From NCBI GenBank assembly GCA_964518475.1, contig CAZFGR010000004.1, positions 1 to 64,000 on the forward strand: a stretch of 64,000 bases of DNA, given 5' to 3'. Below the pieces are notes generated by a model. That model worked only from the letters and a program-made list of their open reading frames with translations, searched no databases and was not told the DNA's origin. The DNA comes from an uncultured Nitrososphaerota archaeon. GTDB taxonomy: Archaea; Asgardarchaeota; Njordarchaeia; Njordarchaeales; Njordarchaeaceae. The position numbers and the translations under genes were made by a program. Numbering within the stretch: position 1 is the first letter of the stretch; the number at the start of each line of letters is the position of its first letter. Below, in pieces: positions 16,504-40,721 of this stretch.

Positions 16504-17853
16504 TTGATAATTATTATGGAGGAGAAGCAGGGGAGAGCATTGATTGATCCAAAGCTTGGTAAAGAACCTATCCTCCAATTAGCGCTAGATTTTACAGAAT
16601 TAAGAAGAGCTATAGTTGTTGCTAGAGAAGCCATTAAAGGAGGGGTAGATTGGTTAGAGGCAGGAACGCCCCTAATAAAGAGCGAAGGTATGAACGCTAT
16701 CAGAACCTTGCGGAGAGAATTTAGGGATAGAGTGATCGTTGCTGATCTAAAGACAATGGATACGGGGAGATTAGAAGTTGAGATGGCTTTCAAGGCTGGA
16801 GCGAACATAGCTGTTGTTCTTGGTGTGAGTGATGATAGCACGATTAAGGAAGCTGTTGAAGCGGCCAGGAACTATGGGGGTTTCATAATGGTTGACATAA
16901 TAAATGTTACAGATCCTGTCAAACGGAGCATTGAGTTAGAGAAGCTGGGGGTCGATATAATATGTGTCCACGTCGGTATTGATCAGCAAATGCGTGGAAT
17001 AGATCCCCTAAATCTTCTAGAAGAGATAAGGGAGAAGGTATCTATTCCTCTAGCTATCGCTGGTGGAATAACGAGTGAGACCGCGGGAATCGCTGTTGAG
17101 AAAGGTGCTGATATAGTGATTGTTGGTGGAGCAATTACGAAGGCTGAAAACGCTACTGAGGCTGCTAGGATTATTAAAGAAGCAATGCTTAAGAGAACAT
17201 CTATCAAAGCTATTAAGGGAAAAAAGGCTAAGCGAGAAGAGGAAATCTTAGAAATTTTGAGAACCGTTTCTGTTCCGAACATTAGTGATGCCATGCATAG
17301 AGCACGTGTATTGACGGGTTTTAAACCAGTTATTCCGGGAACGAAAATTGTCGGTCGAGCTTTACCTGTGAGAACTTATCCTGGGGACTGGGCTAAACCC
17401 GTTGAGGCTATAGATTATGCCATGGAGAACACCGTGATAGTCATCGATGCCGGGGGCGAGGAAACAGCTGTATGGGGAGAACTCGCTACTTGGAGTGCGA
17501 AAAATAAGAAAGTTGCTGGAGTCATCATATATGGGGGAGTTAGGGATATCGAGGATATTCGAAAAATAGGTTTGCCAGTATATGCTAAACACTTCTGCGC
17601 AAGAGCTGGGGAGCCTAAAGGATTCGGAGAAATAAATGTCCCAATAGAGATCGAGGGAGTTAAGATACGACCCGGTGACTACATCGTAGCTGAAGAGGAG
17701 GGGATAATAGTTATTCCGCAAGAAATTGTTCAGGAAGTCGCGAATAGGGCCCTGGATGTTAGGGAGCGAGAGGATAGAATTCGAGAGGAGATAAAGAGAG
17801 GATCAACTCTAAACCAAGTTATAGAGCTTTACAAGTGGGAGAAAGTTTCCTAG
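16504..17853 (+). CDS. hps: Bifunctional 3-hexulose-6-phosphate synthase / RraA-(HMG aldolase)-like protein
   Basis: LQLALD, EAGTPLIK, ADLKTMD, HVGIDQQ, then NISDAM, VIDAGG, AVWGEL, GGVRD, IRPGD. Confidence 0.9.
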   Translation: MIIIMEEKQGRALIDPKLGKEPILQLALDFTELRRAIVVAREAIKGGVDWLEAGTPLIKSEGMNAIRTLRREFRDRVIVADLKTMDTGRLEVEMAFKAGANIAVVLGVSDDSTIKEAVEAARNYGGFIMVDIINVTDPVKRSIELEKLGVDIICVHVGIDQQMRGIDPLNLLEEIREKVSIPLAIAGGITSETAGIAVEKGADIVIVGGAITKAENATEAARIIKEAMLKRTSIKAIKGKKAKREEEILEILRTVSVPNISDAMHRARVLTGFKPVIPGTKIVGRALPVRTYPGDWAKPVEAIDYAMENTVIVIDAGGEETAVWGELATWSAKNKKVAGVIIYGGVRDIEDIRKIGLPVYAKHFCARAGEPKGFGEINVPIEIEGVKIRPGDYIVAEEEGIIVIPQEIVQEVANRALDVREREDRIREEIKRGSTLNQVIELYKWEKVS

Positions 17854-17872: not shown

Positions 17873-18808
17873 ATGCGCTTACTTATCATGGGCCTTGGAT
17901 CCATAGGATCTATGCTAGCTGGTTATTTTGCTGAGAATTATGACGTCTACGCTGTTGGGAGAGAATGGCACGTTAAACCAATAATTGAGAGAGGGTATTT
18001 GATACTGAGAATCCTATTCAAATCAGAGACTAGAAATGTTAAACTTGCTAAAGTATCCACGAGTCTAAAAGAGTTCACTGGAACAAGATTCGATGCTATG
18101 TTTGTTTGTGTGAAAGCCTACGATTTGGAAAATGCTTTGGCTGAGATTGTTAGCAATAACATTGATGCTGATTGCTATGTTTTTCTCCAGAATGGTTTAG
18201 GAATAGAGGAACTAGCCGCAAAAATAATCAGAAACAGAAACATTATTAGGGCCCTTACCAATAATGGTGCTAATATCCCAGAACCAGGCGTTGTTAACCA
18301 TGCTGGACTAGGAAAAACATACATAAGTGGAGTATTTGGAGAGAAAAAAATTGAGTGGGGGAAAAGAATTACGGAATTGTTCAACTCAGTGGGGCTTCCA
18401 GCGGAGTACGTAAGAGACATCACACCGTATGTATTTAGGAAGGTGGCTATAAACGCTGTAATAAATTCATTAACAGCGATTTTAAGGATAAAGAATAGGG
18501 GGGTTGCGGATCTGCCAGAACTTAGAGGCATTGTCAGGGGAGTATGTAGGGAGATTAAAGAAATTGCAAAAAAGAAGGGTCTTAACCTAGGTAAGTTGGA
18601 GGAGATAGTCCTATCTGTAGCAAAAGAGACTGGTGAGAATATATCATCTATGCTACAGGACATTCTCCGAAACAAAAGAACTGAGATAGATTTTATAAAT
18701 GGGGCAATTGTAAAACTGGGTAAAGAACTGGGAGTCCCAACACCTGTAAATGAGACCTTATATAGACTAGTTAAGGCAATAGAGAAATCTCGTGAGTATC
18801 GAGTATAG
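17873..18808 (+). CDS. panE: 2-dehydropantoate 2-reductase
   Basis: GLGSIG, VKAYD, LQNG, K...NAVINSLTA, SSMLQD, TEIDFING. Confidence 0.93.
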   Translation: MRLLIMGLGSIGSMLAGYFAENYDVYAVGREWHVKPIIERGYLILRILFKSETRNVKLAKVSTSLKEFTGTRFDAMFVCVKAYDLENALAEIVSNNIDADCYVFLQNGLGIEELAAKIIRNRNIIRALTNNGANIPEPGVVNHAGLGKTYISGVFGEKKIEWGKRITELFNSVGLPAEYVRDITPYVFRKVAINAVINSLTAILRIKNRGVADLPELRGIVRGVCREIKEIAKKKGLNLGKLEEIVLSVAKETGENISSMLQDILRNKRTEIDFINGAIVKLGKELGVPTPVNETLYRLVKAIEKSREYRV

Positions 18809-18821
18809 GGAACATTCTTAG

Positions 18822-20030
18822 ATGAAACTCTCGGGAGATTGTGCTATGAACGACCGAACGAGGCTACTAGTGGTAGTGTCTCTCCTGCATCTAATTAATG
18901 ACGCGAATATATTGCTTATTCCAACTGTTCTTCCATTAATTTTGAGAGAGTTCCATTTATCCTATACTCAGGTAGGGATCTTATTAAGTTCCTCCATAGT
19001 GTTGACAATATTTCTTCAATCCCCCCTCGGGTATTTCTCAGATATTAAAGGGAGGAGGTATCTCCTATCTCTAGGATTCCTTATTCTTGGTCTAGGAGGT
19101 ATACTATCTTCATTAGCAGAAACTTTTACACAGCTATTGATTGCTCAGTTAATTATAGGATTAGGAGGTAGCTTCTATCATCCACTAAGCTATGCCTTAA
19201 CAGCAATATCTTATGAATCTGGGGGAAGAGGTAGATCTATAGGTATCCAGAGTAGTATGGGGGATATTGGTGTATTGTTAACATTTGCTGTAAACGGTTA
19301 TATAGCACCTAGACTCGGTTGGAGAACGCCTCTCCTCCTATTTGGTCTAGTAGCCATTGGAGGAAGCATTCTTCCGCTGTTAGTAAAGGAAGAAAGTCCT
19401 GTAGATAAGAATATAGCTTCGGAAAAAATGAATTCGCAAAATATTGTTTCGTTGATACCGATCTTGGGAATCCAATTCTTCCTTGTAGCAGCTTACAGAG
19501 TAGTATACGGGTATACCTCTCTCATTCTCATCGAAAAAGGACTTGAATTATTACTTGCTAATTTAGTAATTGCGTTACTGACATTGTCTGGTATAGTAGG
19601 TAGTATTGCCATCGGGACTTTAGTAGATAGTTATGATGCGAGAGCGCTGATTAGTATGCTCGCACTGATAGGTATTTTAGTGGTGCAGATTCTGATTCAT
19701 AGTAGTGCGTTACTGTTAGCAATAGTAAGTGTAATAAGTCTTGGATTCGTGATTTATGGGTTTTATCCATGCACATATTCATTACTAGCAGATAACGTAT
19801 CGAAGAATGTCCTTGGGTTAGCCTACGGTATTATGCTTTCAATAGGATTAGTTGGGGGAATCCTAGGCACAATCCTTGGAGGGGTTTTAGGGGATCTGTA
19901 CGGCCTAGTATTAGTTCCGTATTTAGTAGTATTGTTTTTTATAGCTATCCTCTATCTATCGCTCATAAGTAAGAATATTGATATAAGAAAGAGCGTGGAG
20001 AACAGTACAAATGATTTAAATACTTTGTGA
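18822..20030 (+). CDS. MFS transporter
   Basis: 12 TM helices, motif A GYFSDIKGRR, GGSFYHP. Confidence 0.9.
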   Translation: MKLSGDCAMNDRTRLLVVVSLLHLINDANILLIPTVLPLILREFHLSYTQVGILLSSSIVLTIFLQSPLGYFSDIKGRRYLLSLGFLILGLGGILSSLAETFTQLLIAQLIIGLGGSFYHPLSYALTAISYESGGRGRSIGIQSSMGDIGVLLTFAVNGYIAPRLGWRTPLLLFGLVAIGGSILPLLVKEESPVDKNIASEKMNSQNIVSLIPILGIQFFLVAAYRVVYGYTSLILIEKGLELLLANLVIALLTLSGIVGSIAIGTLVDSYDARALISMLALIGILVVQILIHSSALLLAIVSVISLGFVIYGFYPCTYSLLADNVSKNVLGLAYGIMLSIGLVGGILGTILGGVLGDLYGLVLVPYLVVLFFIAILYLSLISKNIDIRKSVENSTNDLNTL

Positions 20031-20066: not shown

Positions 20067-20813
20067 ATGACGATACTAGGGATACTACTAATAGATTCCA
20101 AGGGCAACACCCTTTATAAAAAGGTTCTTGACATAAAATTCCGCGAAGTTCCTATAGAGCCCTTGGTGGCGGCGATTAGAGGTATAGGTATGGAGATGGG
20201 AGGAAAAGAAATTGTGAAAACGTATTTTGAGAAGGCCGTGATATTCTTTATTCCTGGGGCAATAATTAGAGATTTGTTTCTCGTTCTCATACTTGATAAT
20301 GTTGAAAGAGTTGATGTTCTTAGAGGAGTGTATATTCTAAACAAAATAGAGAAACTATTGAGAATAGTCGAGGGAAAAGATCTGAGAGAGAAGATCGAGA
20401 ACATAAAGGTCAGTATCGATAAGATAATTAGTCAAGCGCTAAGGATACCAGATTATCTAACAGCTTCAATCACTAGGCTTCTTGAGAAACTGGGACCAAT
20501 GGTACCCGAGATTGCCATGGAGGTATTAAGGAGACGACTAGGAGAAGATCCTATTCTGGCCGCTATTTTATGGCCAAATGAGTTCTTGAAAAAGTTGTTG
20601 GAAATGTTTGGGTGGGATAGTGCAGAATTACTCATTACTTCCCTCTATTTAGAAATTACAACGCTTTATCCGAGGATACCGCAAACTTCTCTAAAAGACT
20701 ATTCATTAAAGGTGAAACAATTAACTAAGCAATTATTATTGGGTGATAGAAAGGCTATAATAGCTTGGAGAAAACTCTTAGAAATTATTGCAGAACATTT
20801 TATTAAACAATAA
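20067..20813 (+). CDS. Hypothetical: N-terminal longin-like domain plus C-terminal DUF3227/NitrOD5-like helical domain
   Basis: N-terminus ILGILLIDSKGNTLY...LVAAIRGIGMEMGGKEI..YFE...FF...DLFLVLILD; C-terminus WPNEFLKKLLEMFGWDSAELLI. Confidence 0.55.
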   Translation: MTILGILLIDSKGNTLYKKVLDIKFREVPIEPLVAAIRGIGMEMGGKEIVKTYFEKAVIFFIPGAIIRDLFLVLILDNVERVDVLRGVYILNKIEKLLRIVEGKDLREKIENIKVSIDKIISQALRIPDYLTASITRLLEKLGPMVPEIAMEVLRRRLGEDPILAAILWPNEFLKKLLEMFGWDSAELLITSLYLEITTLYPRIPQTSLKDYSLKVKQLTKQLLLGDRKAIIAWRKLLEIIAEHFIKQ

Positions 20814-20945
20814 GCAGTTAAAAATTAAACAAGTAGAACTATTGTAGACTTTGTAGGCAAATGGCAGAAAAACAAATAAATTAGATGTATATTCTTCCAG
20901 ATAGGTGGTATGCTCTTATTAACTATATTACGGGGCTGACATAAT

Positions 20946-22316
20946 ATGCTCGAGCGGGTCTATACGGGAATAGAGGGACTCGACTGTGCTCTCGGTGGAG
21001 GTTTTGTGAGAGGTTCACTGATCCTAGTTGAGGGGAATCCCGGAACCGGAAAAACAATACTAGGAGCTACTTTCTTGTATAATGGGATAGTCAAGTATGG
21101 AGAGAACGGAATCTATCTAAATTTTATTGAAAGAAAAAGGGATTTTTATGCTCGTATGAGGTCTCTAGGCATGAATTTTGAACCACTGGAGAAGGAAGGG
21201 AAGTTCGAGTATATTGAGGGACTGTATTCTCTCGATATCCGCGGCCTAGAGAACATATTTAAGCTATTAGTCGAGAAAATATTTGCCATTAATGCAAAGA
21301 GACTCGTAATAGATTCTGTCTCAGCAGTTATTTATGGTCTGAAAGAACGTGAAATCCGGGCCTTTCTCAGTAATACTATAAGCAGGATCCTTAGAAGCAC
21401 TGGAGTAACAACGATGCTGATTAGTGACCTACCTTACGGGAAAAATGTGATAGAGAATGAGGTGGGTGAATTCATCGCTGATACCGTTATTATGATGAAG
21501 CAAAGGATCAGACCAGATAGAATAACAAATGTTATGGAGGTTCGGAAGAGTAGGGGGAAGACGGTAAAGCCTTACGTGTTGCCTTATATAATAACTGGAA
21601 GGGGATTCTATGTCGTCTCTCCACTATCAACAAGACTATACGGACGCTATAGTAAGGAAATTTTAGAAACTGGTATCTCAGCACTGGATAATCGTCTTAG
21701 CGGAGGATTACTAAAAGGTTCCACAACATTAATAGTGGGTCCTTCAGGTACTGGAAAGACCCTTCTAGCATTAACTATTGCTGTTAATAACATTAGAAAA
21801 GGAAAAAGGGTTATCATTACTACTTTTAAGGAACCCGACGAGATTCTTAAAGAATACTTGATTAGACTTGGTGTAGACGAGAGTGAACTTGATAAAAAAG
21901 TTAGGATTCTGAGCCTAAATCCCTTTGGATCGTCTGAGTACGAGATCCTCTATATTGCTCGACGTGCTGTCGAGGAATTTAAGCCAGATATATACATTCT
22001 TGACGGGTTAGAGATTTTTGAAGCAGCATTAGGGAAGGAAGAAGCCTTTAATTACACTTACAGAAGAATTCAAGAACTCAAATCAGCTGGATTAACAATA
22101 ATACTCGTTAAATGGAGTCCAAATCCTAAGCAAGGAGACAATTTATACCCCTTGATGGATAATATCCTAATAACAGATATCATGTGGGAGAAAACCAGAT
22201 ATAGGAAGCTCTTATGGATCGTGAAGTCTAGATCTGAGGGAGGGGAAATTCTCAGCACGCCTTTAATGATTAAGGAAACAAGCCGAAGCTTGCTTCTCAG
22301 TGAAGCGGAAGAATAA
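20946..22316 (+). CDS. KaiC/RAD55-like RecA-superfamily ATPase, two domains
   Basis: TGIEGLD..LGGG and TGISALD..LSGG; Walker A GNPGTGKT and GPSGTGKT; Walker B LVIDS and YILDG; KSRG/KSRS Arg fingers. Confidence 0.92.
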   Translation: MLERVYTGIEGLDCALGGGFVRGSLILVEGNPGTGKTILGATFLYNGIVKYGENGIYLNFIERKRDFYARMRSLGMNFEPLEKEGKFEYIEGLYSLDIRGLENIFKLLVEKIFAINAKRLVIDSVSAVIYGLKEREIRAFLSNTISRILRSTGVTTMLISDLPYGKNVIENEVGEFIADTVIMMKQRIRPDRITNVMEVRKSRGKTVKPYVLPYIITGRGFYVVSPLSTRLYGRYSKEILETGISALDNRLSGGLLKGSTTLIVGPSGTGKTLLALTIAVNNIRKGKRVIITTFKEPDEILKEYLIRLGVDESELDKKVRILSLNPFGSSEYEILYIARRAVEEFKPDIYILDGLEIFEAALGKEEAFNYTYRRIQELKSAGLTIILVKWSPNPKQGDNLYPLMDNILITDIMWEKTRYRKLLWIVKSRSEGGEILSTPLMIKETSRSLLLSEAEE

Positions 22317-23584: not shown

Positions 23585-23770
23585 TCAACTCTTAGTCTTG
23601 GATCGATGTTTTCTTGAAGCTTTATAGTGTTCCGCACAATGTACACAACAAAATGTAAGCACTTCTCCATCAACTTCTTCACTGTAGTCTTCCCCAACTA
23701 TTTTGATACCACAATTAGCACATACTTTTATCTGGGGCGTTATAGCGACTTGAATAAGATTAGAAAACAT
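23585..23770 (-). pseudogene. TRASH metal-binding domain, probably the 3' remnant of a CopR/CopT-type regulator or a small Cu chaperone
   Basis: CANCG-x18-FCCVHC TRASH signature; the nominal N-terminus is the antisense of a copA remnant. Confidence 0.6.
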
Positions 23771-24111: not shown

Positions 24112-24360
24112 ATGGCTGAGATTACTACTCTCGATGATAGAGGGCGAGTTTTGATAGGGAAAAATTTGAGGAGGAAATATGGACTTAAAGAGAAGTCTAT
24201 TGTTGTTCTCATACCGTTGAGGGAGGGAATCTTGATTAAGCCTATTAAGGATCCATTAAAAAGACTTTCGGAGATTCTACGGGGTATTACGTGGGATAGA
24301 AGAGTTCGTAAGAGGGTTGAGGAATGGGTTCTTCGACAAGTCGGCGAGAAAGAATCTTAG
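24112..24360 (+). CDS. vapB: AbrB/MazE/SpoVT-family antitoxin
   Basis: TTLDDRGRVLIGKNLRRKYGL swapped-hairpin motif; overlaps a PIN gene. Confidence 0.88.
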   Translation: MAEITTLDDRGRVLIGKNLRRKYGLKEKSIVVLIPLREGILIKPIKDPLKRLSEILRGITWDRRVRKRVEEWVLRQVGEKES

Positions 24361-24773
24361 TAGAAACGGATTTTTTATTCGGTATAAATCCCCTAGATAA
24401 ACTTCACGACTATGTTATTAATATAGTAAGACTCAGTAAGAATGGTGCTATAGACTGCTTTATTCCGACATCAGCATTGATGGAGTTTAGAGCAGTACTC
24501 TATTCGCGAGGTAAGGAGCCTAGTGAGGTTCTAGAAGCGCTCAGCATAGTAAGGGAGTTCCTGAGATCTAGCAATATAGGGGAAATACCGCTAAAAAGTG
24601 AACACATAATTAGTGGGGAAACTCTGAGAATGAGGTATCGTGAACTCACGTATTTTGATGCAATTCATGCGGGTGTAGCATTAATCGAAAACATGACTAT
24701 AGTGAGTTATGATGAGATATACTCAAGATTAGAGGAGATAAAATGGAGAAAAATAACAGAGTTCCAAAAATAA
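24324..24773 (+). CDS. vapC: PIN-domain toxin
   Basis: ILVETDFL, E in SALMEF, TYFDAIHAG, IVSYDE. Confidence 0.88.
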   Translation: MGSSTSRRERILVETDFLFGINPLDKLHDYVINIVRLSKNGAIDCFIPTSALMEFRAVLYSRGKEPSEVLEALSIVREFLRSSNIGEIPLKSEHIISGETLRMRYRELTYFDAIHAGVALIENMTIVSYDEIYSRLEEIKWRKITEFQK

Positions 24774-34694: not shown

Positions 34695-37600
34695 GTGATT
34701 ACTATGAGAAAAGGCGCGGTTTTACTTTTATCAATAATATTATTGAATCTCCTTATAATTCCGCAGATCCTTCCAGAGACAATTACTAGCCAAACAGCTC
34801 AAGCCCACACGCTTTCCAATGAGAATCCAAACAATACACTTCCTCTAGGATTAATGAGGCAGAAGCCCCTCAAATTGCCGGAAATAGAAACTCTTTACAG
34901 CAAGAAGTATGTACTGGAATTCGGAGAACCTCTTCTAGTTCCTTCAGGTATACTTGAGGGTTATTGGCTACCATTCATCCCCAACACGAGAATTTCCATG
35001 CAGCCTGGTTATCCGCTCCTTCCAGTAAACATATCAGTAATCGAGCTACCGCATGATGCCCAGGATATCCAAGTCCAGATACATACGACCGAGACAAAGG
35101 TTCTCGAAGATAGCTATAATATTTTACCTAGTCCAAAACCCTTGGTAATGACGAGAAATAATGCGAGTATAAATGAGTTGTTCGAGATTAGAAAGAGAAT
35201 TTTTGAGAAGTACCCATCCAGTTTCCTAGAATATAGAGTATTGAATGGTATCGACACAAGTACTTTAGAGAGAAAGAAGTTCTTAGTGATCTATTTCTAT
35301 CCTCTGACCTATACTGGTGATGGGGAATTAATCTTTGTGAGAAAGGCGGTTATAGATATCTCGTACAGGATAAGCCCTAGCGTCAGGCAATTAAGCTTAG
35401 GGAATCTAGAAGCTTTAATAATTACTAGTAATGATCTGTTTCCAGAAGCCCTCTTATTGGCTAGGATGAAGAATTCATCGGGCATATCAACAATTGTGAG
35501 AACAGTAGAATGGATCTACTCTAATTACCAGGGAAGAGATAAGCCAGAGAAGATAAGAGCTTTTATCAAAGATATGGTGAATGAATACGGCATAAAGTTT
35601 GTGATAATTTTTGGTGATGCTGACAAGGTTCCCACTAGGGAAGTCTGGGTACCAGATGGAGCATACGATTATGATCCCTCCATAGATGGAAGCACGGTGG
35701 CTACTGATCTTTACTATGCCGATCTAGATTATAGCTGGGACGATAATGGAGATGGTTTATGGGGAGATCTGAGATACGATAGAGTCGACGGGCTACCAGA
35801 TGTTATTGTAGGTAGGATACCAGTAAGTAATGAAAGTGAGGCTAGAGCTTATCTAGAGAAGCTAGCTAGATATAAACCAAGCAGTGATTGGTTCAACAAT
35901 GTTCTTCTCATAGGTTCTGATACGTTTATGACTGGATGGCCGGAGGGAGAATACCTATCTGATTATATAACACGATTCATATGGGCGAATTTCTCCGTCA
36001 CTAAGCTGTATGAGACCGCTGGTAATTTGACGCTACCGATGCTTATTCACCAAATAAACAAGGGTTATGGTCTCATAAACTATGATGGCCACGGAGACGT
36101 AAATGCGTGGATAATAAGTCTGGGATCTATCTACGCTATGGACAATGCTTTACAACAGATTAATAGAGAGCATCTATCCATTATTTTCTCAATGGCTTGT
36201 TTAACAGCGAGATTCGATGATAGGGATTCTATCGGTGAAGCGTTTGTTCTGAATCCGAATGGTGGGGCAATTGGATATGTTGGAGCTACTAGATTATCTT
36301 GGGGATACATTGGTGAGCTAGTCATAACAGGGCTTGCTGGTGAGATGAGTTGGAGATTCGTGAAGAACTTCTTTTCGCCCCTAAATAGGTACTTGGGAAG
36401 TGTCTGGGCAGCTACTATTAGCGAATACGCTATCAATAACCCTATTGAAACAAACTACTATGGCTATTACCTAGATTGGAAAACTGTAGCAGAATTCGTC
36501 TTATTCGGGGATCCAACAATTAGTTTAAGACCTATTCCACGCGAAAACGTTACGGAAATTCCAGAATTAATCGGAGACAACACTAGCGTATTGATAAGAA
36601 ACGCAACTATGACAATTCATTCCCTAGACTTATCTTCCTCAAATCTAACAATTTATAACTCAACGATCCATGTAAAGAATCAGGCAAAGATACAAGAGTA
36701 CTCTAGGGTTATTCTGAATGGGAGTTTCATTACTGGAGAAGTAGCTCTAATTCTTAACAACACCATATTAATGATTGATAACTCCGTAATCGAAATACCA
36801 ATAATACTCATCGGGAACACAACCGTCTCTGTAAGAAATTCTTATGTGAACGGGATAACGGTTCTTGATAATTTCTCCTGGCTTAGGATCGAGAACTCGT
36901 CAATCAATTTGTTACTGAGAATTGACGAAAAGGGTGAAATTTTGATTAGAGAGGGCTTCTGCAAGTCTATGAATCTTCTAGACTTGGTAGGGTATAATAT
37001 TTCCCTAAATAATACACATGTTCTACTTGGATTGAATGTTACGGGTGCAGAATTAAACATTACAAACTCAATACTGTCCAGTGTCTTCGCGTACGACGCT
37101 GCTATCCAAATAACGAATTCCGCAATAAGCTCTATCAAGGTCGTAGGGAAGACTAGTCTAGTTGTGGATAATTCCCGAACAGGCGTAGAATTATCAATTA
37201 TCGACGCACACGGGGTATTAAAACTAGCAGAGAGCCCAAAATATCTAAGAATCAACGGAGATAACTTTACTGGCGTCCAATGGTCCTTGGAACTAATGAA
37301 TACAAACATAACAACTTGGAGAATAAGGCTCTACAATTCTTCTCTAGAGGTTAGAGATTCCACAGTCTATGAAATTGTTGCTGAAGAATCCGAGCTTCTA
37401 GTCATTGACTCTAAAGTAAGTATTCTAAATGCTATAAATACGATATGTAATATCGAGAATACTCGTGTTTACTATGAGCGGTTACTATTCTCAAATATTA
37501 CTAGCGCAGATTCTAGGATAGAGTATCTGTGGGCAAACAACAGCTTTTTAGATCTCAGAAACGTTACTGGGTATGATACCAAGTTCTTAAATTCTAGTCT

Positions 37601-40600
37601 TAGTGCTTCTATCATCTATTATTACCACGTAGTATTCACGGGTTCTCAGAGATCATTTATGAGTGAGAGTAAGGTGGCTATTTTAGAGATATTTGACTAT
37701 GCAGAGTTAATAATTAAAGCATCTAGAGTCGCGGTGATGTTCTTAAGAAATTCGTCGTATGTGCGATTAGAAAATACCACGGTTACATATGCTGCAAGAA
37801 TAATGGATAACACCACATTACTAGCTAAGAACTCCATTATATGGCCCGAACTCGTCTTTGTAAACACAAATACTGTTATAAAGAACTTAGTGGCTGGAAA
37901 CATTACTAGTTTAGAGCTTATAAATGGATGGAATATTACTATTATGTCCTCCGTAGTGATTGGGTGGGACATTATCCTCTATAACTCCTCCGCTGAGATC
38001 TCCGAGTCTCAAATCTACTGGCTATTTGGCTACTACTCCTCAAGGGTACGTGTAGAGAAGTCATGGATCGATCTGCTTAGACTCACACACTTTAGTAGCG
38101 GTGAGATTGTTTTATCTCGCATATCTCAAGCGGTATTATCGGGATTCTCGGAAACTACTCTTAGAAAGTCTTCTGTATCAAGTATGACTGTGATGGGGAA
38201 TGCTAAAGCAGGACTATCCATGATCAAGAGTACGGAAGTAGTAGTTTTCACCAACGCAAGCGTCGCAGTCCATAACTCCTTGATAAGGTTTTTGGCACCT
38301 TTTGATTCTTCAAGCGTGGTAGTAGAGAACTCTGCAGTGGGTATTTGGCTAGAGCTATACAACATCGTAAATAAGACTATTAGGCTAAAGCCTGGCTACT
38401 ATATTATGCTTACTGAGGCAGATATTGGGTTACCGAATATTGACTGGAGCCTAAGCGTGAAAGAATCCCGAATCAACTGGTACCTCCTATTAGTAAACTC
38501 CTCGGCGAGGATAAAGGATTCGCAATTAACTATTCTAGGATTCCTAGACTCAAGCATTATTGTTGAGAATTCATTAATAATTGATATCCTCCAGGCCGTG
38601 GCATCGGATTTCCTGATTAGAGATACTGTGGGTGCGAACGTAACAACAATCATTAATGGAGTAGGAACGCTAGAGAATTCCTCCTTCACTAACCTAATGA
38701 TTCAGGATTCCGAGATAGAGATAAGTGATTGTAAAAGTACGCTAACATTAGTATTCGCTGATGGAGAGCTGGAACTGAGCCTGAGACCAGCGTATTATAA
38801 AGATGCATGGCTAAACTATACCGCTGGATCCGAGACAATAAACCTTCACCTAATGAATTCTTGGATAAACAATTGGATGGTACTCTTGATGGGTAGGGCT
38901 AGGGTCTCAATAGTGGATTCGAATGTATTGACTGTTGGAGCGGCTGAAAATGCTACACTGATTGTAAGGAATACAACAATATATGGTTATCTAGAACTCT
39001 TCCCGACAGCCAGTATTTTGGTTGAATCATCCTTAATAGGAAACCTTTACTGGTTCTTATACAGTACAGAGCTAGCAATTTCTATCCCAGCACCAAATAT
39101 AAGCGATATGGAGCTTAACGCCTCTGGTTACTTAAGGATAATAGACTCATTCCTTTATAATATCCATTTAGAAGCCACATTATCAAACATCTCCATCTTC
39201 GACACGCCGAGAATCTCAGAGACACGATTAATCATGTCGAAACTAATTGCCCAAAACTCGATAATAGACAAGATAAAGGCCGCATCATCAAGCCTTGACT
39301 TAACTCAATCAATAGTTAATACAACAGAGTTCATTGGAACTGATGCTAAAATATCGAGAAGCACTATTAAGAACCTCGGTATTGACCAGTTCTCTAATGT
39401 AATTGTCGAGTATTCTAGCATCGGTCTTAATATGGTCTTTAGATTCTTCAACATTGTGGTGAAGGGAGAAGAGTGGAAATCCGAGAACAGTAATAGTACA
39501 ATTATTGGAGATTACTGGGTTCTACAGCTTAGTTCCTCCAATATAACGAGTGCTTCATTCACCCTCGTGGGAACAGCTAACGCCACTATATCCAATTCTC
39601 GTCTTAAAGCACTTGTATGCAAAGACTTCAGCACAGCTAATATCACAGAGTCTGAAATAGAGACATTAATTCTGGAAGATGCTGCTCACATCGCATTATC
39701 CAATAGTGTTACGGGAGTAGAGATAAGAGTGGAGAATACTGAAACAGAATTTGATCTAAAGACAAACATAGAAGTGTCGGGAAAAATAAGTGCGTTGAGA
39801 GGCATTGGTTACGAGTTATCGCTTAAGGATACGGTAATTACTGGAGTAAACATTACAGCGGTAGCGTCTAAGGTAGTGATTGATAATTCAGAAATAATGA
39901 TGCTAGTAGCTGATTATGGATCAAGAGTCTTCGTGAATTCTTCAAGAGTAATCTTAGCACTTCTAGGTTCTGGAGCAAAGATTTGGGCGGAGGATTCAGA
40001 GATTAGATTATTGACACCGCATCAGATAAACAAAGTATATCTGGATAATTGTCAAGTAGGGGTTTCGCTTCTATTAATGGGAAGAAAAGAAAAACTTGTT
40101 CTTGGAAGCGGTTTTGAACCCTACTTTGTAACTAATGATAACTTCATGGATTGGCTAATAGAGGGCTATTATTCCGAAATAATTGATTGGAGAGTACTTG
40201 CATTGCAGGGATCAAACGTAACACTTGAGTACTCCCATATACTACTGGTCTATGCAGAGGCGAACTCATGGGTAAGACTCATAGACTGTCAACTAGAACT
40301 TCCACCCATAGTAACCATGCAGAGCATAGTCGAGATTTACTGGAGCTTAGGAGTGAGGGTATTAAGAGACCTAATACCAATAAGCAACATTAATGTAACA
40401 ATATATAACGACAAGGGAGAACTCGTAGCATCAAGTACAACGAATGAAGCTGGAGAAGCCATCTTTTACTTACCCCAAGCCATAATCCTAGACTCCGCTA
40501 GAATCGACCTAGGCAACTATGTCATAAAAGTCAAGTATGGTTATCTAGGCGCTTCAAAGCGAATATACCTATGGAAGCCCACATCCGTAACAATTTACTT

Positions 40601-40721
40601 AATGGGCCCACTCACAATCGCATTGATAGGATTCACAATAATCCTCATAGGAATACTTATCAAAACAGTAGTAGAAATACTACGAGAGAGAAAGAAGCCA
40701 AAAGCCCCAGCATTTCCATAA
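34695..40721 (+). CDS. Surface-anchored C25 (gingipain-family) cysteine peptidase with long beta-solenoid region
   Basis: Signal peptide, propeptide (PGYPLLP), FVIIFGD, TDLYYADLD, PDVIVGRIP, catalytic YDGHG and SMAC, GGAIGYVGATR, LFGDP; about 1300 aa of I/V-x-N/D-S repeats; Ig-like domain; C-terminal TM plus basic tail. Confidence 0.88.
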   Translation: MITMRKGAVLLLSIILLNLLIIPQILPETITSQTAQAHTLSNENPNNTLPLGLMRQKPLKLPEIETLYSKKYVLEFGEPLLVPSGILEGYWLPFIPNTRISMQPGYPLLPVNISVIELPHDAQDIQVQIHTTETKVLEDSYNILPSPKPLVMTRNNASINELFEIRKRIFEKYPSSFLEYRVLNGIDTSTLERKKFLVIYFYPLTYTGDGELIFVRKAVIDISYRISPSVRQLSLGNLEALIITSNDLFPEALLLARMKNSSGISTIVRTVEWIYSNYQGRDKPEKIRAFIKDMVNEYGIKFVIIFGDADKVPTREVWVPDGAYDYDPSIDGSTVATDLYYADLDYSWDDNGDGLWGDLRYDRVDGLPDVIVGRIPVSNESEARAYLEKLARYKPSSDWFNNVLLIGSDTFMTGWPEGEYLSDYITRFIWANFSVTKLYETAGNLTLPMLIHQINKGYGLINYDGHGDVNAWIISLGSIYAMDNALQQINREHLSIIFSMACLTARFDDRDSIGEAFVLNPNGGAIGYVGATRLSWGYIGELVITGLAGEMSWRFVKNFFSPLNRYLGSVWAATISEYAINNPIETNYYGYYLDWKTVAEFVLFGDPTISLRPIPRENVTEIPELIGDNTSVLIRNATMTIHSLDLSSSNLTIYNSTIHVKNQAKIQEYSRVILNGSFITGEVALILNNTILMIDNSVIEIPIILIGNTTVSVRNSYVNGITVLDNFSWLRIENSSINLLLRIDEKGEILIREGFCKSMNLLDLVGYNISLNNTHVLLGLNVTGAELNITNSILSSVFAYDAAIQITNSAISSIKVVGKTSLVVDNSRTGVELSIIDAHGVLKLAESPKYLRINGDNFTGVQWSLELMNTNITTWRIRLYNSSLEVRDSTVYEIVAEESELLVIDSKVSILNAINTICNIENTRVYYERLLFSNITSADSRIEYLWANNSFLDLRNVTGYDTKFLNSSLSASIIYYYHVVFTGSQRSFMSESKVAILEIFDYAELIIKASRVAVMFLRNSSYVRLENTTVTYAARIMDNTTLLAKNSIIWPELVFVNTNTVIKNLVAGNITSLELINGWNITIMSSVVIGWDIILYNSSAEISESQIYWLFGYYSSRVRVEKSWIDLLRLTHFSSGEIVLSRISQAVLSGFSETTLRKSSVSSMTVMGNAKAGLSMIKSTEVVVFTNASVAVHNSLIRFLAPFDSSSVVVENSAVGIWLELYNIVNKTIRLKPGYYIMLTEADIGLPNIDWSLSVKESRINWYLLLVNSSARIKDSQLTILGFLDSSIIVENSLIIDILQAVASDFLIRDTVGANVTTIINGVGTLENSSFTNLMIQDSEIEISDCKSTLTLVFADGELELSLRPAYYKDAWLNYTAGSETINLHLMNSWINNWMVLLMGRARVSIVDSNVLTVGAAENATLIVRNTTIYGYLELFPTASILVESSLIGNLYWFLYSTELAISIPAPNISDMELNASGYLRIIDSFLYNIHLEATLSNISIFDTPRISETRLIMSKLIAQNSIIDKIKAASSSLDLTQSIVNTTEFIGTDAKISRSTIKNLGIDQFSNVIVEYSSIGLNMVFRFFNIVVKGEEWKSENSNSTIIGDYWVLQLSSSNITSASFTLVGTANATISNSRLKALVCKDFSTANITESEIETLILEDAAHIALSNSVTGVEIRVENTETEFDLKTNIEVSGKISALRGIGYELSLKDTVITGVNITAVASKVVIDNSEIMMLVADYGSRVFVNSSRVILALLGSGAKIWAEDSEIRLLTPHQINKVYLDNCQVGVSLLLMGRKEKLVLGSGFEPYFVTNDNFMDWLIEGYYSEIIDWRVLALQGSNVTLEYSHILLVYAEANSWVRLIDCQLELPPIVTMQSIVEIYWSLGVRVLRDLIPISNINVTIYNDKGELVASSTTNEAGEAIFYLPQAIILDSARIDLGNYVIKVKYGYLGASKRIYLWKPTSVTIYLMGPLTIALIGFTIILIGILIKTVVEILRERKKPKAPAFP

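Follow-up and report, generated by a model that had tools for sequence, protein, structure and literature searches.

It has been proposed that KaiC-like ATPases are major signaling hubs in archaea. The pairing of such an ATPase with an 'archaeal Death domain-like' helical adaptor (DUF3227/NitrOD5, PF11537; PH0832) was predicted in 2017 (Makarova, Galperin and Koonin, mBio 8:e01959-17), as that work is cited in PMC5847659. Here we describe a related locus in a 64,000-nucleotide stretch of Asgard archaeal DNA (hereafter, the window), which represents contig C4 of a 2.33-Mb, 91%-complete metagenome-assembled genome (G000) and whose DNA was found in sediment and hydrothermal-vent metagenomes. The locus comprises the gene for P0001 (20067..20813, forward strand), a 248-aa protein combining a predicted longin domain with a PH0832/NitrOD5-like helical domain, and the next gene, which encodes the two-domain KaiC-like ATPase P0002. 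The parts and the KaiC–adaptor pairing are known, and the joining of a longin domain to a KaiC adaptor is new. P0001 is probably an accessory or adaptor protein of KaiC, with the longin domain as its output or platform domain.

The locus resembled the module predicted in 2017 in that a two-domain KaiC lies beside, and usually overlaps, a gene carrying an all-helical PH0832/NitrOD5 domain of ~100–120 aa, and in that a stand-alone form of the adaptor is present as well (genome G081). It differed in that the adaptor here bears an extra 128-aa N-terminal longin domain and falls below the PF11537 cut-off, and in that the two-domain form was seen in a single Asgard genus only. A reading of the window made from its letters (hereafter, the sequence-only reading) had proposed a new signaling module; this was overstated, because the pair of KaiC and DUF3227-like helical adaptor had been predicted in 2017, although the longin fusion is indeed new. 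Two further kinds of described protein bear on the architecture. In the REC-NitrOD5 response regulators of Nitrosopumilus and relatives (PMC5847659), the common helical superfamily serves as an output or interaction domain on a signaling domain, but the partner there is a phospho-receiver with an upstream histidine kinase, whereas the partner here is a longin domain with an upstream KaiC ATPase. Fusions of longin or Roadblock domains described in Asgard archaea include Rag-like longin-GTPase proteins and an NPRL2-like longin with two-component domains (Liu et al., bioRxiv 10.1101/2020.10.19.343400; PMC10933270); P0001 likewise places a eukaryote-type longin on prokaryotic-type signaling parts in a narrow Asgard lineage. 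No report of a longin fused to a PH0832/NitrOD5-like domain was found, nor, in a full-text literature search, any link between longin and KaiC in Asgard archaea.

The two open reading frames (20067–20813, 248 aa, and 20946–22316, 456 aa, both on the forward strand) were located as in the sequence-only reading, and a GAGGG Shine–Dalgarno-like motif precedes the ATG of P0001 by ~7 nt. At E<=10, P0001 still had no match in Pfam or NCBIfam. Its structure was modeled by AlphaFold2 from a 15-sequence alignment (predicted local distance difference test score [pLDDT], 86.7; predicted template modeling score [pTM], 0.87). The model splits into two domains, residues 1–128 and 125–248. The first (20067..20450, forward strand) is predicted to contain five strands, helices at residues 31–43 and 81–100, and two short helices. 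Secondary-structure assignment by DSSP gave strands at 3–10 and 15–20, a helix at 31–43, strands at 51–53, 58–63, and 70–76, and a helix at 81–100, followed by nine helices. The beta-beta-alpha-beta-beta-beta-alpha order that had been read from residues 1–120 matched this model.

The model indicated that residues 1–128 of P0001 are a longin fold, as the sequence-only reading had supposed. In the VIA all-against-all structural search, the ~30 best matches of the N-half were all longin domains: AP2 mu (Z 13.4, 115 aa, root mean square deviation 2.6), delta-COP (Z 13.2), the sigma and mu subunits of AP3/AP4 (Z 12.8–12.9), and synbindin/Bet5 of TRAPP, VAMP7, Sec22, Mon1-Ccz1, and CPLANE (Z 9.5–11.8). 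Foldseek agreed (zeta-COP, 1.3e-4). Roadblock/MglB/LAMTOR domains reached Z 8–9 and covered residues 1–100 only, whereas the longin matches spanned residues 1–128. In the model, strand 1 begins at residue 3, which leaves no N-terminal helix, and extra C-terminal helices are present; the N-half was therefore assigned to the longin type rather than to the Roadblock type. The N-domain shares its core fold with the longin–Roadblock platforms MglB/MglA and Ragulator/TRAPP (Z 8–12), but differs from them in this longin-type topology and in that no cognate GTPase gene is linked to it. Fold neighbors in the ESM Atlas were proteins of Promethearchaeota and Thorarchaeota, which, together with the GTPase, Roadblock, and ESCRT-II genes of the genome, makes an Asgard source very probable. 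Two residues of the domain, Y89 and K93, were invariant and lie within the motif Y-L-x-N-K-I-E-K. Among Pfam longin-type families, PF19036 (Fuz_longin_1) gave weak matches in three of the 15 members of the P0001 family (best 0.0088) and PF03259 (Robl_LC7) in one (0.019); the curated cut-off was not reached for any such family, and P0001 itself gave no match to them at E<=10.

The C-half (aa 125–248; 20439..20810, forward strand) was identified as a PH0832/NitrOD5-like ('archaeal Death-like') KaiC-adaptor domain. Modeled separately, it showed seven helices (pLDDT 80.6). It resembled PH0832 of Pyrococcus horikoshii (PDB ID: 2p9x) with Z 9.2–10.0, 94/98 residues, root mean square deviation 2.7–3.0, and 21–22% identity; the runner-up reached Z 4.4, and pyrin and death-fold domains appeared in the tail at Z~4. 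Comparison of the sequence profile of the C-halves (alignment A2) with the PDB returned the same entry (E 3.2e-6, chain residues 5–93). The stretch aligned to PH0832 is the one at aa ~135–205 that had been called DUF3227-like, and its P-x-x-F motif contains the invariant P170. The C-half also shows the layout typical of PF11537 (all-helical, ~95–100 aa, stand-alone or output domain), with a stand-alone homolog in G081. In the ESM Atlas, a feature search with the C-half gave no usable match, all structure rows having template modeling (TM) scores <0.5, and a shape search with the C-half model gave one plausible archaeal cluster of 110 aa (TM 0.59/0.65).

NitrOD5 (PF11537) matched weakly in seven of the 15 members (E<=1, best 1.8e-4), more than any other Pfam family did, but no member reached its cut-off of 27 bits; a paralog in the same genome (G000:C5) scored 21.7 bits. 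Above that cut-off, NitrOD5 was not found in 301 genomes of the phylum. The proposed kinship with DUF3227/NitrOD5 therefore stands at the superfamily level, whereas PH0832 is the clear relative. Because the PH0832 match is clear and the PF11537 scores fall below the cut-off, we classified the C-half as PH0832-like, distantly related to PF11537 and outside that family by the curated threshold.

The gene after P0001 encodes a tandem KaiC, as had been read from the sequence. P0002 (20946..22316, forward strand, 456 aa) matched PF06745 at 3.4e-78 in two stretches, corresponding to an N domain (nt 20958–21620) and a C domain (nt 21666–22277). Both ATPase sites are intact: the Walker A motifs are GNPGTGKT and GPSGTGKT, and each domain keeps the Walker B Asp and the catalytic Glu. 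In alignment A4, containing six cognate homologs, G-x-x-G-x-GK-T/S, E62/E296, and D123/D353 were invariant. In the cyanobacterial KaiABC clock, small accessory proteins likewise read or set the state of a two-domain KaiC-family ATPase; P0002 is, however, far below the clock-KaiC equivalog cut-offs (TIGR02655 and PRK09302; 134 bits against 546 and 225 against 408), no KaiB above cut-off was found in the genome, and P0001 is unrelated to KaiA, KaiB, and SasA. From these scores and the lack of a KaiB above cut-off, we regard P0002 as a generic archaeal KaiC-like ATPase and not as a clock component.

The linkage of P0001 to KaiC recurs in its relatives. In a neighborhood survey of 21 non-redundant family loci, taken from metagenome contigs as well as four genomes of the genus, KaiC adjoined the family member in 10 loci, which bore out the proposed association. 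In seven of the 21, the member is followed directly by a two-domain KaiC on the same strand (the window, G004:C13, the second copy on G004:C1, G006:C43, and the contigs of P0009, P0014, and P0015), and three loci have an adjacent single-domain KaiC, which is convergent in two cases and upstream in one. Members and two-domain KaiCs overlap by 1–17 nt or stand 21–22 nt apart, with the exception of the window (132 nt). Since the genome encodes only ~5 KaiC-family genes, such adjacency would be expected by chance at less than 1% per locus. Conversely, each of the four two-domain, P0002-like KaiCs found in the genus is directly preceded by a family member. KaiC-linked members occurred on either side of the midpoint root, in three or more clades. 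Sequence identities of members and of their KaiCs co-varied (r 0.91), a value based on ten comparisons of five pairs that are not independent and largely reflecting the split between the window and the rest.

On one contig (L016; G004:C1:1-9828), two member–KaiC pairs lie 3 kb apart; one consists of a member, a convergent single-domain KaiC, and an oligonucleotide/oligosaccharide-binding (OB) fold protein, and the other of a member and a two-domain KaiC. Between the pairs is a fused gene for IIC/IID of the mannose-family phosphotransferase system (PTS; 536 aa). Such a gene is unusual for an archaeon and may result from horizontal transfer or a binning error.

The isolated helical domain shows the same linkage. 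When 400 genomes of the phylum were searched with a profile, a stand-alone C-domain (139–152 aa, E 3.5e-10) emerged in G081, a genome of another Asgard family, and this domain aligned with the C-half profile with an hhalign probability of 93.9% (E 1.6e-7). Its gene stands between a two-domain and a single-domain KaiC gene on one strand, within a row of three KaiC-family genes (L053; G081:C23:2058-5372). The position of this copy free of longin, the most telling of the results on linkage, shows the helical domain to be the part that travels with KaiC. KaiC genes cluster in this other family (f10); in two more of its genomes, G019 (L080) and G029 (L079), a single-domain KaiC directly precedes a more distantly related two-domain KaiC, and no adaptor was detected within 1.5 kb. 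A complex prediction for P0002 with P0001 (alignments A4 and A1) scored 0.26 against a mark of 0.32, and was counted neither for nor against binding.

In contrast to the helical domain, which also occurs outside the genus, the fusion is narrowly distributed. An exhaustive HMMER scan of 1.84 billion representatives returned only 13 proteins at E<=1e-3, nearly all of them 240–280 aa in length. In the search of phylum genomes, full-length matches covering both domains were confined to the genus of the window (g1), where they occurred in four of its seven genomes. A word-indexed search added a closer homolog, P0003, with 48% identity to P0001; it lies on a 1.2-kb contig in which no KaiC start was seen in the 283 nt downstream, a contig too short to count. 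Word-indexed searches with profiles A2 and A1 yielded no further members, and a related-locus search of the genome contigs with P0001 alone found nothing. The longin domain alone matched the N-termini of proteins of ~713–745 aa in this and neighboring genera (E down to 1e-17), for which no Pfam match was found beyond the N-terminal domain. Two of these are encoded in G000 (N-terminal matches at G000:C5:29694-30056 and G000:C15:16426-16812), and a longin-headed gene of 729 aa lies directly downstream of the family member P0008 (L023:6904-9093). Because the fusion occurs only in g1 and the relatives of its N-domain head these long proteins, the longin domain is a lineage-specific addition to the adaptor, with the longin-headed proteins of ~730 aa as its closest sequence relatives.

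Taken together, the KaiC linkage of the family and the stand-alone copy between KaiC genes led us to regard the helical half as the known KaiC adaptor. P0001 would then be a cytoplasmic protein of two domains, accessory to the KaiC-like ATPase of the neighboring gene. Its C-domain may dock on the KaiC ring, and the adaptor could in this way read or set the ATPase or phosphorylation state of KaiC. In one Asgard genus, the adaptor appears to have acquired an N-terminal longin domain. Elsewhere, longin folds serve as dimeric platforms, most often for small GTPases. If the longin domain of P0001 behaves like other longin and Roadblock domains, it may form a dimerizing platform and bring another partner to the KaiC hub. 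Within this explanation, the two folds, the kinship of the C-half with PH0832, the KaiC linkage of the family and of the isolated C-domain, the narrow range of the fusion, and the intact ATPase motifs come from the data, and we infer the physical contact with KaiC, the direction of signaling, and the identity of the longin partner.

Several observations weigh against this assignment. P0001 itself gave no match to PF11537 at any threshold. Eleven of the 21 family loci have no KaiC nearby; four of these 11 are on contigs too short or too truncated to judge, and in one an IS1595-family transposase gene (zinc ribbon and DDE; L030:2184-3184) is inserted directly downstream of P0013, at the place where sister loci carry the two-domain KaiC. 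The genome of the window also encodes a paralog (on G000:C5) that has an ATP-binding cassette (ABC) transporter and an OB-fold protein as neighbors rather than KaiC. As about half of the loci lack an adjacent KaiC, family members can work without one. In the window, moreover, P0001 is only 36 nt from an unrelated upstream gene and 132 nt from KaiC, so that its co-transcription with KaiC is not evident there. The spacer (20814..20945, 132 nt) is A/T-rich, and since it exceeds the spacing in the other member–KaiC pairs, the P0002 gene may have a promoter of its own. A scan for promoters and terminators gave counts at background level, its consensus being bacterial and uninformative for an archaeon.

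This arrangement could also mean that the adjacency in the window is incidental and that P0001 is expressed with upstream metabolic and transport genes, with no functional tie to P0002. A fusion of an OMP-decarboxylase/HPS-family domain with an RraA-like aldolase (449 aa, 16504–17853), a ketopantoate reductase (PanE; 17873–18808), and a major facilitator superfamily (MFS) transporter (18822–20030) form a co-directional run with P0001 in which the gaps are 13–36 nt. These upstream genes are, however, conserved beside no other family member, whereas KaiC is, and the member–KaiC pair recurs in independent lineages; we therefore consider this explanation highly improbable. Another account would place the module in nucleic-acid transactions, with the KaiC-like partners as RadA-paralog (aRadC-type) ATPases working with an Ssb-like OB-fold protein and the family member as an accessory factor. 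The KaiC family belongs to the RecA/RadA superfamily, and P0002 indeed gave weak matches to RadA, RadB, and DnaB. Homologous Ssb-like OB-fold proteins (PF21473; 108–128 aa, 40–90% mutual identity) stand beside members in five loci, which belong to two clades. In two loci without KaiC they directly follow the member (L012:6954-7328, on G000:C5, and L020:7251-7619), in two others they directly precede the single-domain KaiC (L015:4764-5111 and L016:5844-6182), and in one they lie 3.6 kb away (L013:10390-10773). The OB-fold protein may add a third component to the sub-type of the module in which it occurs, but its gene is absent from all seven two-domain-KaiC loci, including the window. In addition, neither domain of P0001 has a nucleic-acid-binding fold, and the sequence relatives of the C-domain are output domains of response regulators (REC-NitrOD5; PMC5847659), which makes a role in nucleic-acid transactions quite improbable.

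The sequence-only reading had further proposed that P0001 couples the KaiC hub to longin/GTPase-type signaling. In explicit form, the longin domain would bind a Ras-superfamily small GTPase as a GTPase-activating protein, a guanine nucleotide exchange factor, or a platform. At least 10 Ras-family GTPases and six Roadblock proteins, as well as two ESCRT-II EAP30 proteins, score above cut-off in the genome, and longin and Roadblock domains that have been characterized typically serve as platforms for GTPases (PMC3747258, PMC10933270). On the other hand, not every longin domain binds GTPases (those of SNAREs and of adaptor sigma and mu subunits, for example, do not), and the contig of the window carries no GTPase or Roadblock gene. 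A GTPase was within reach at one of the 21 loci, where the member P0004 (L033) lies 2 kb from an Arf/Ras/Roc GTPase gene; a VapBC pair and another gene stand between the two, and the ~150 kb of family-locus flanks contained no other GTPase. In Asgard archaea, a GTPase and its regulators do not as a rule share an operon (PMC10933270), and the missing GTPase neighbors are for this reason weak evidence that cannot decide either way. The coupling thus followed from the analogy of folds and was not borne out by the loci, and we consider it unlikely. It is similarly doubtful that the longin domain binds a Rab/Arf/Rag-like GTPase, or the longin/Roadblock partner of one, and that P0001 bridges the KaiC hub and the GTPase network. 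If this were true, a prokaryotic timer or switch ATPase would control a proto-eukaryotic GTPase platform in Asgard archaea.

Elsewhere in the window, we observed a small TRASH-domain metal-binding protein on the reverse strand (23585–23770), a toxin–antitoxin pair with a 37-nt overlap (24112–24773) that consists of a VapB-like antitoxin of the AbrB/MazE type (82 aa) and a PIN-domain VapC (149 aa), and a very long open reading frame on the forward strand (34695–40721, 2008 aa).

In P0001, the putative KaiC adaptor and a longin domain form one polypeptide, which would provide a handle on what a KaiC adaptor delivers, in a system of two soluble proteins (248 and 456 aa) with separable domains. 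The fusion also adds to the cases in which Asgard lineages have shuffled eukaryote-signature domains onto prokaryotic signaling parts and, because it is confined to one genus, reveals more about the modularity of these parts than about the origins of eukaryotes.

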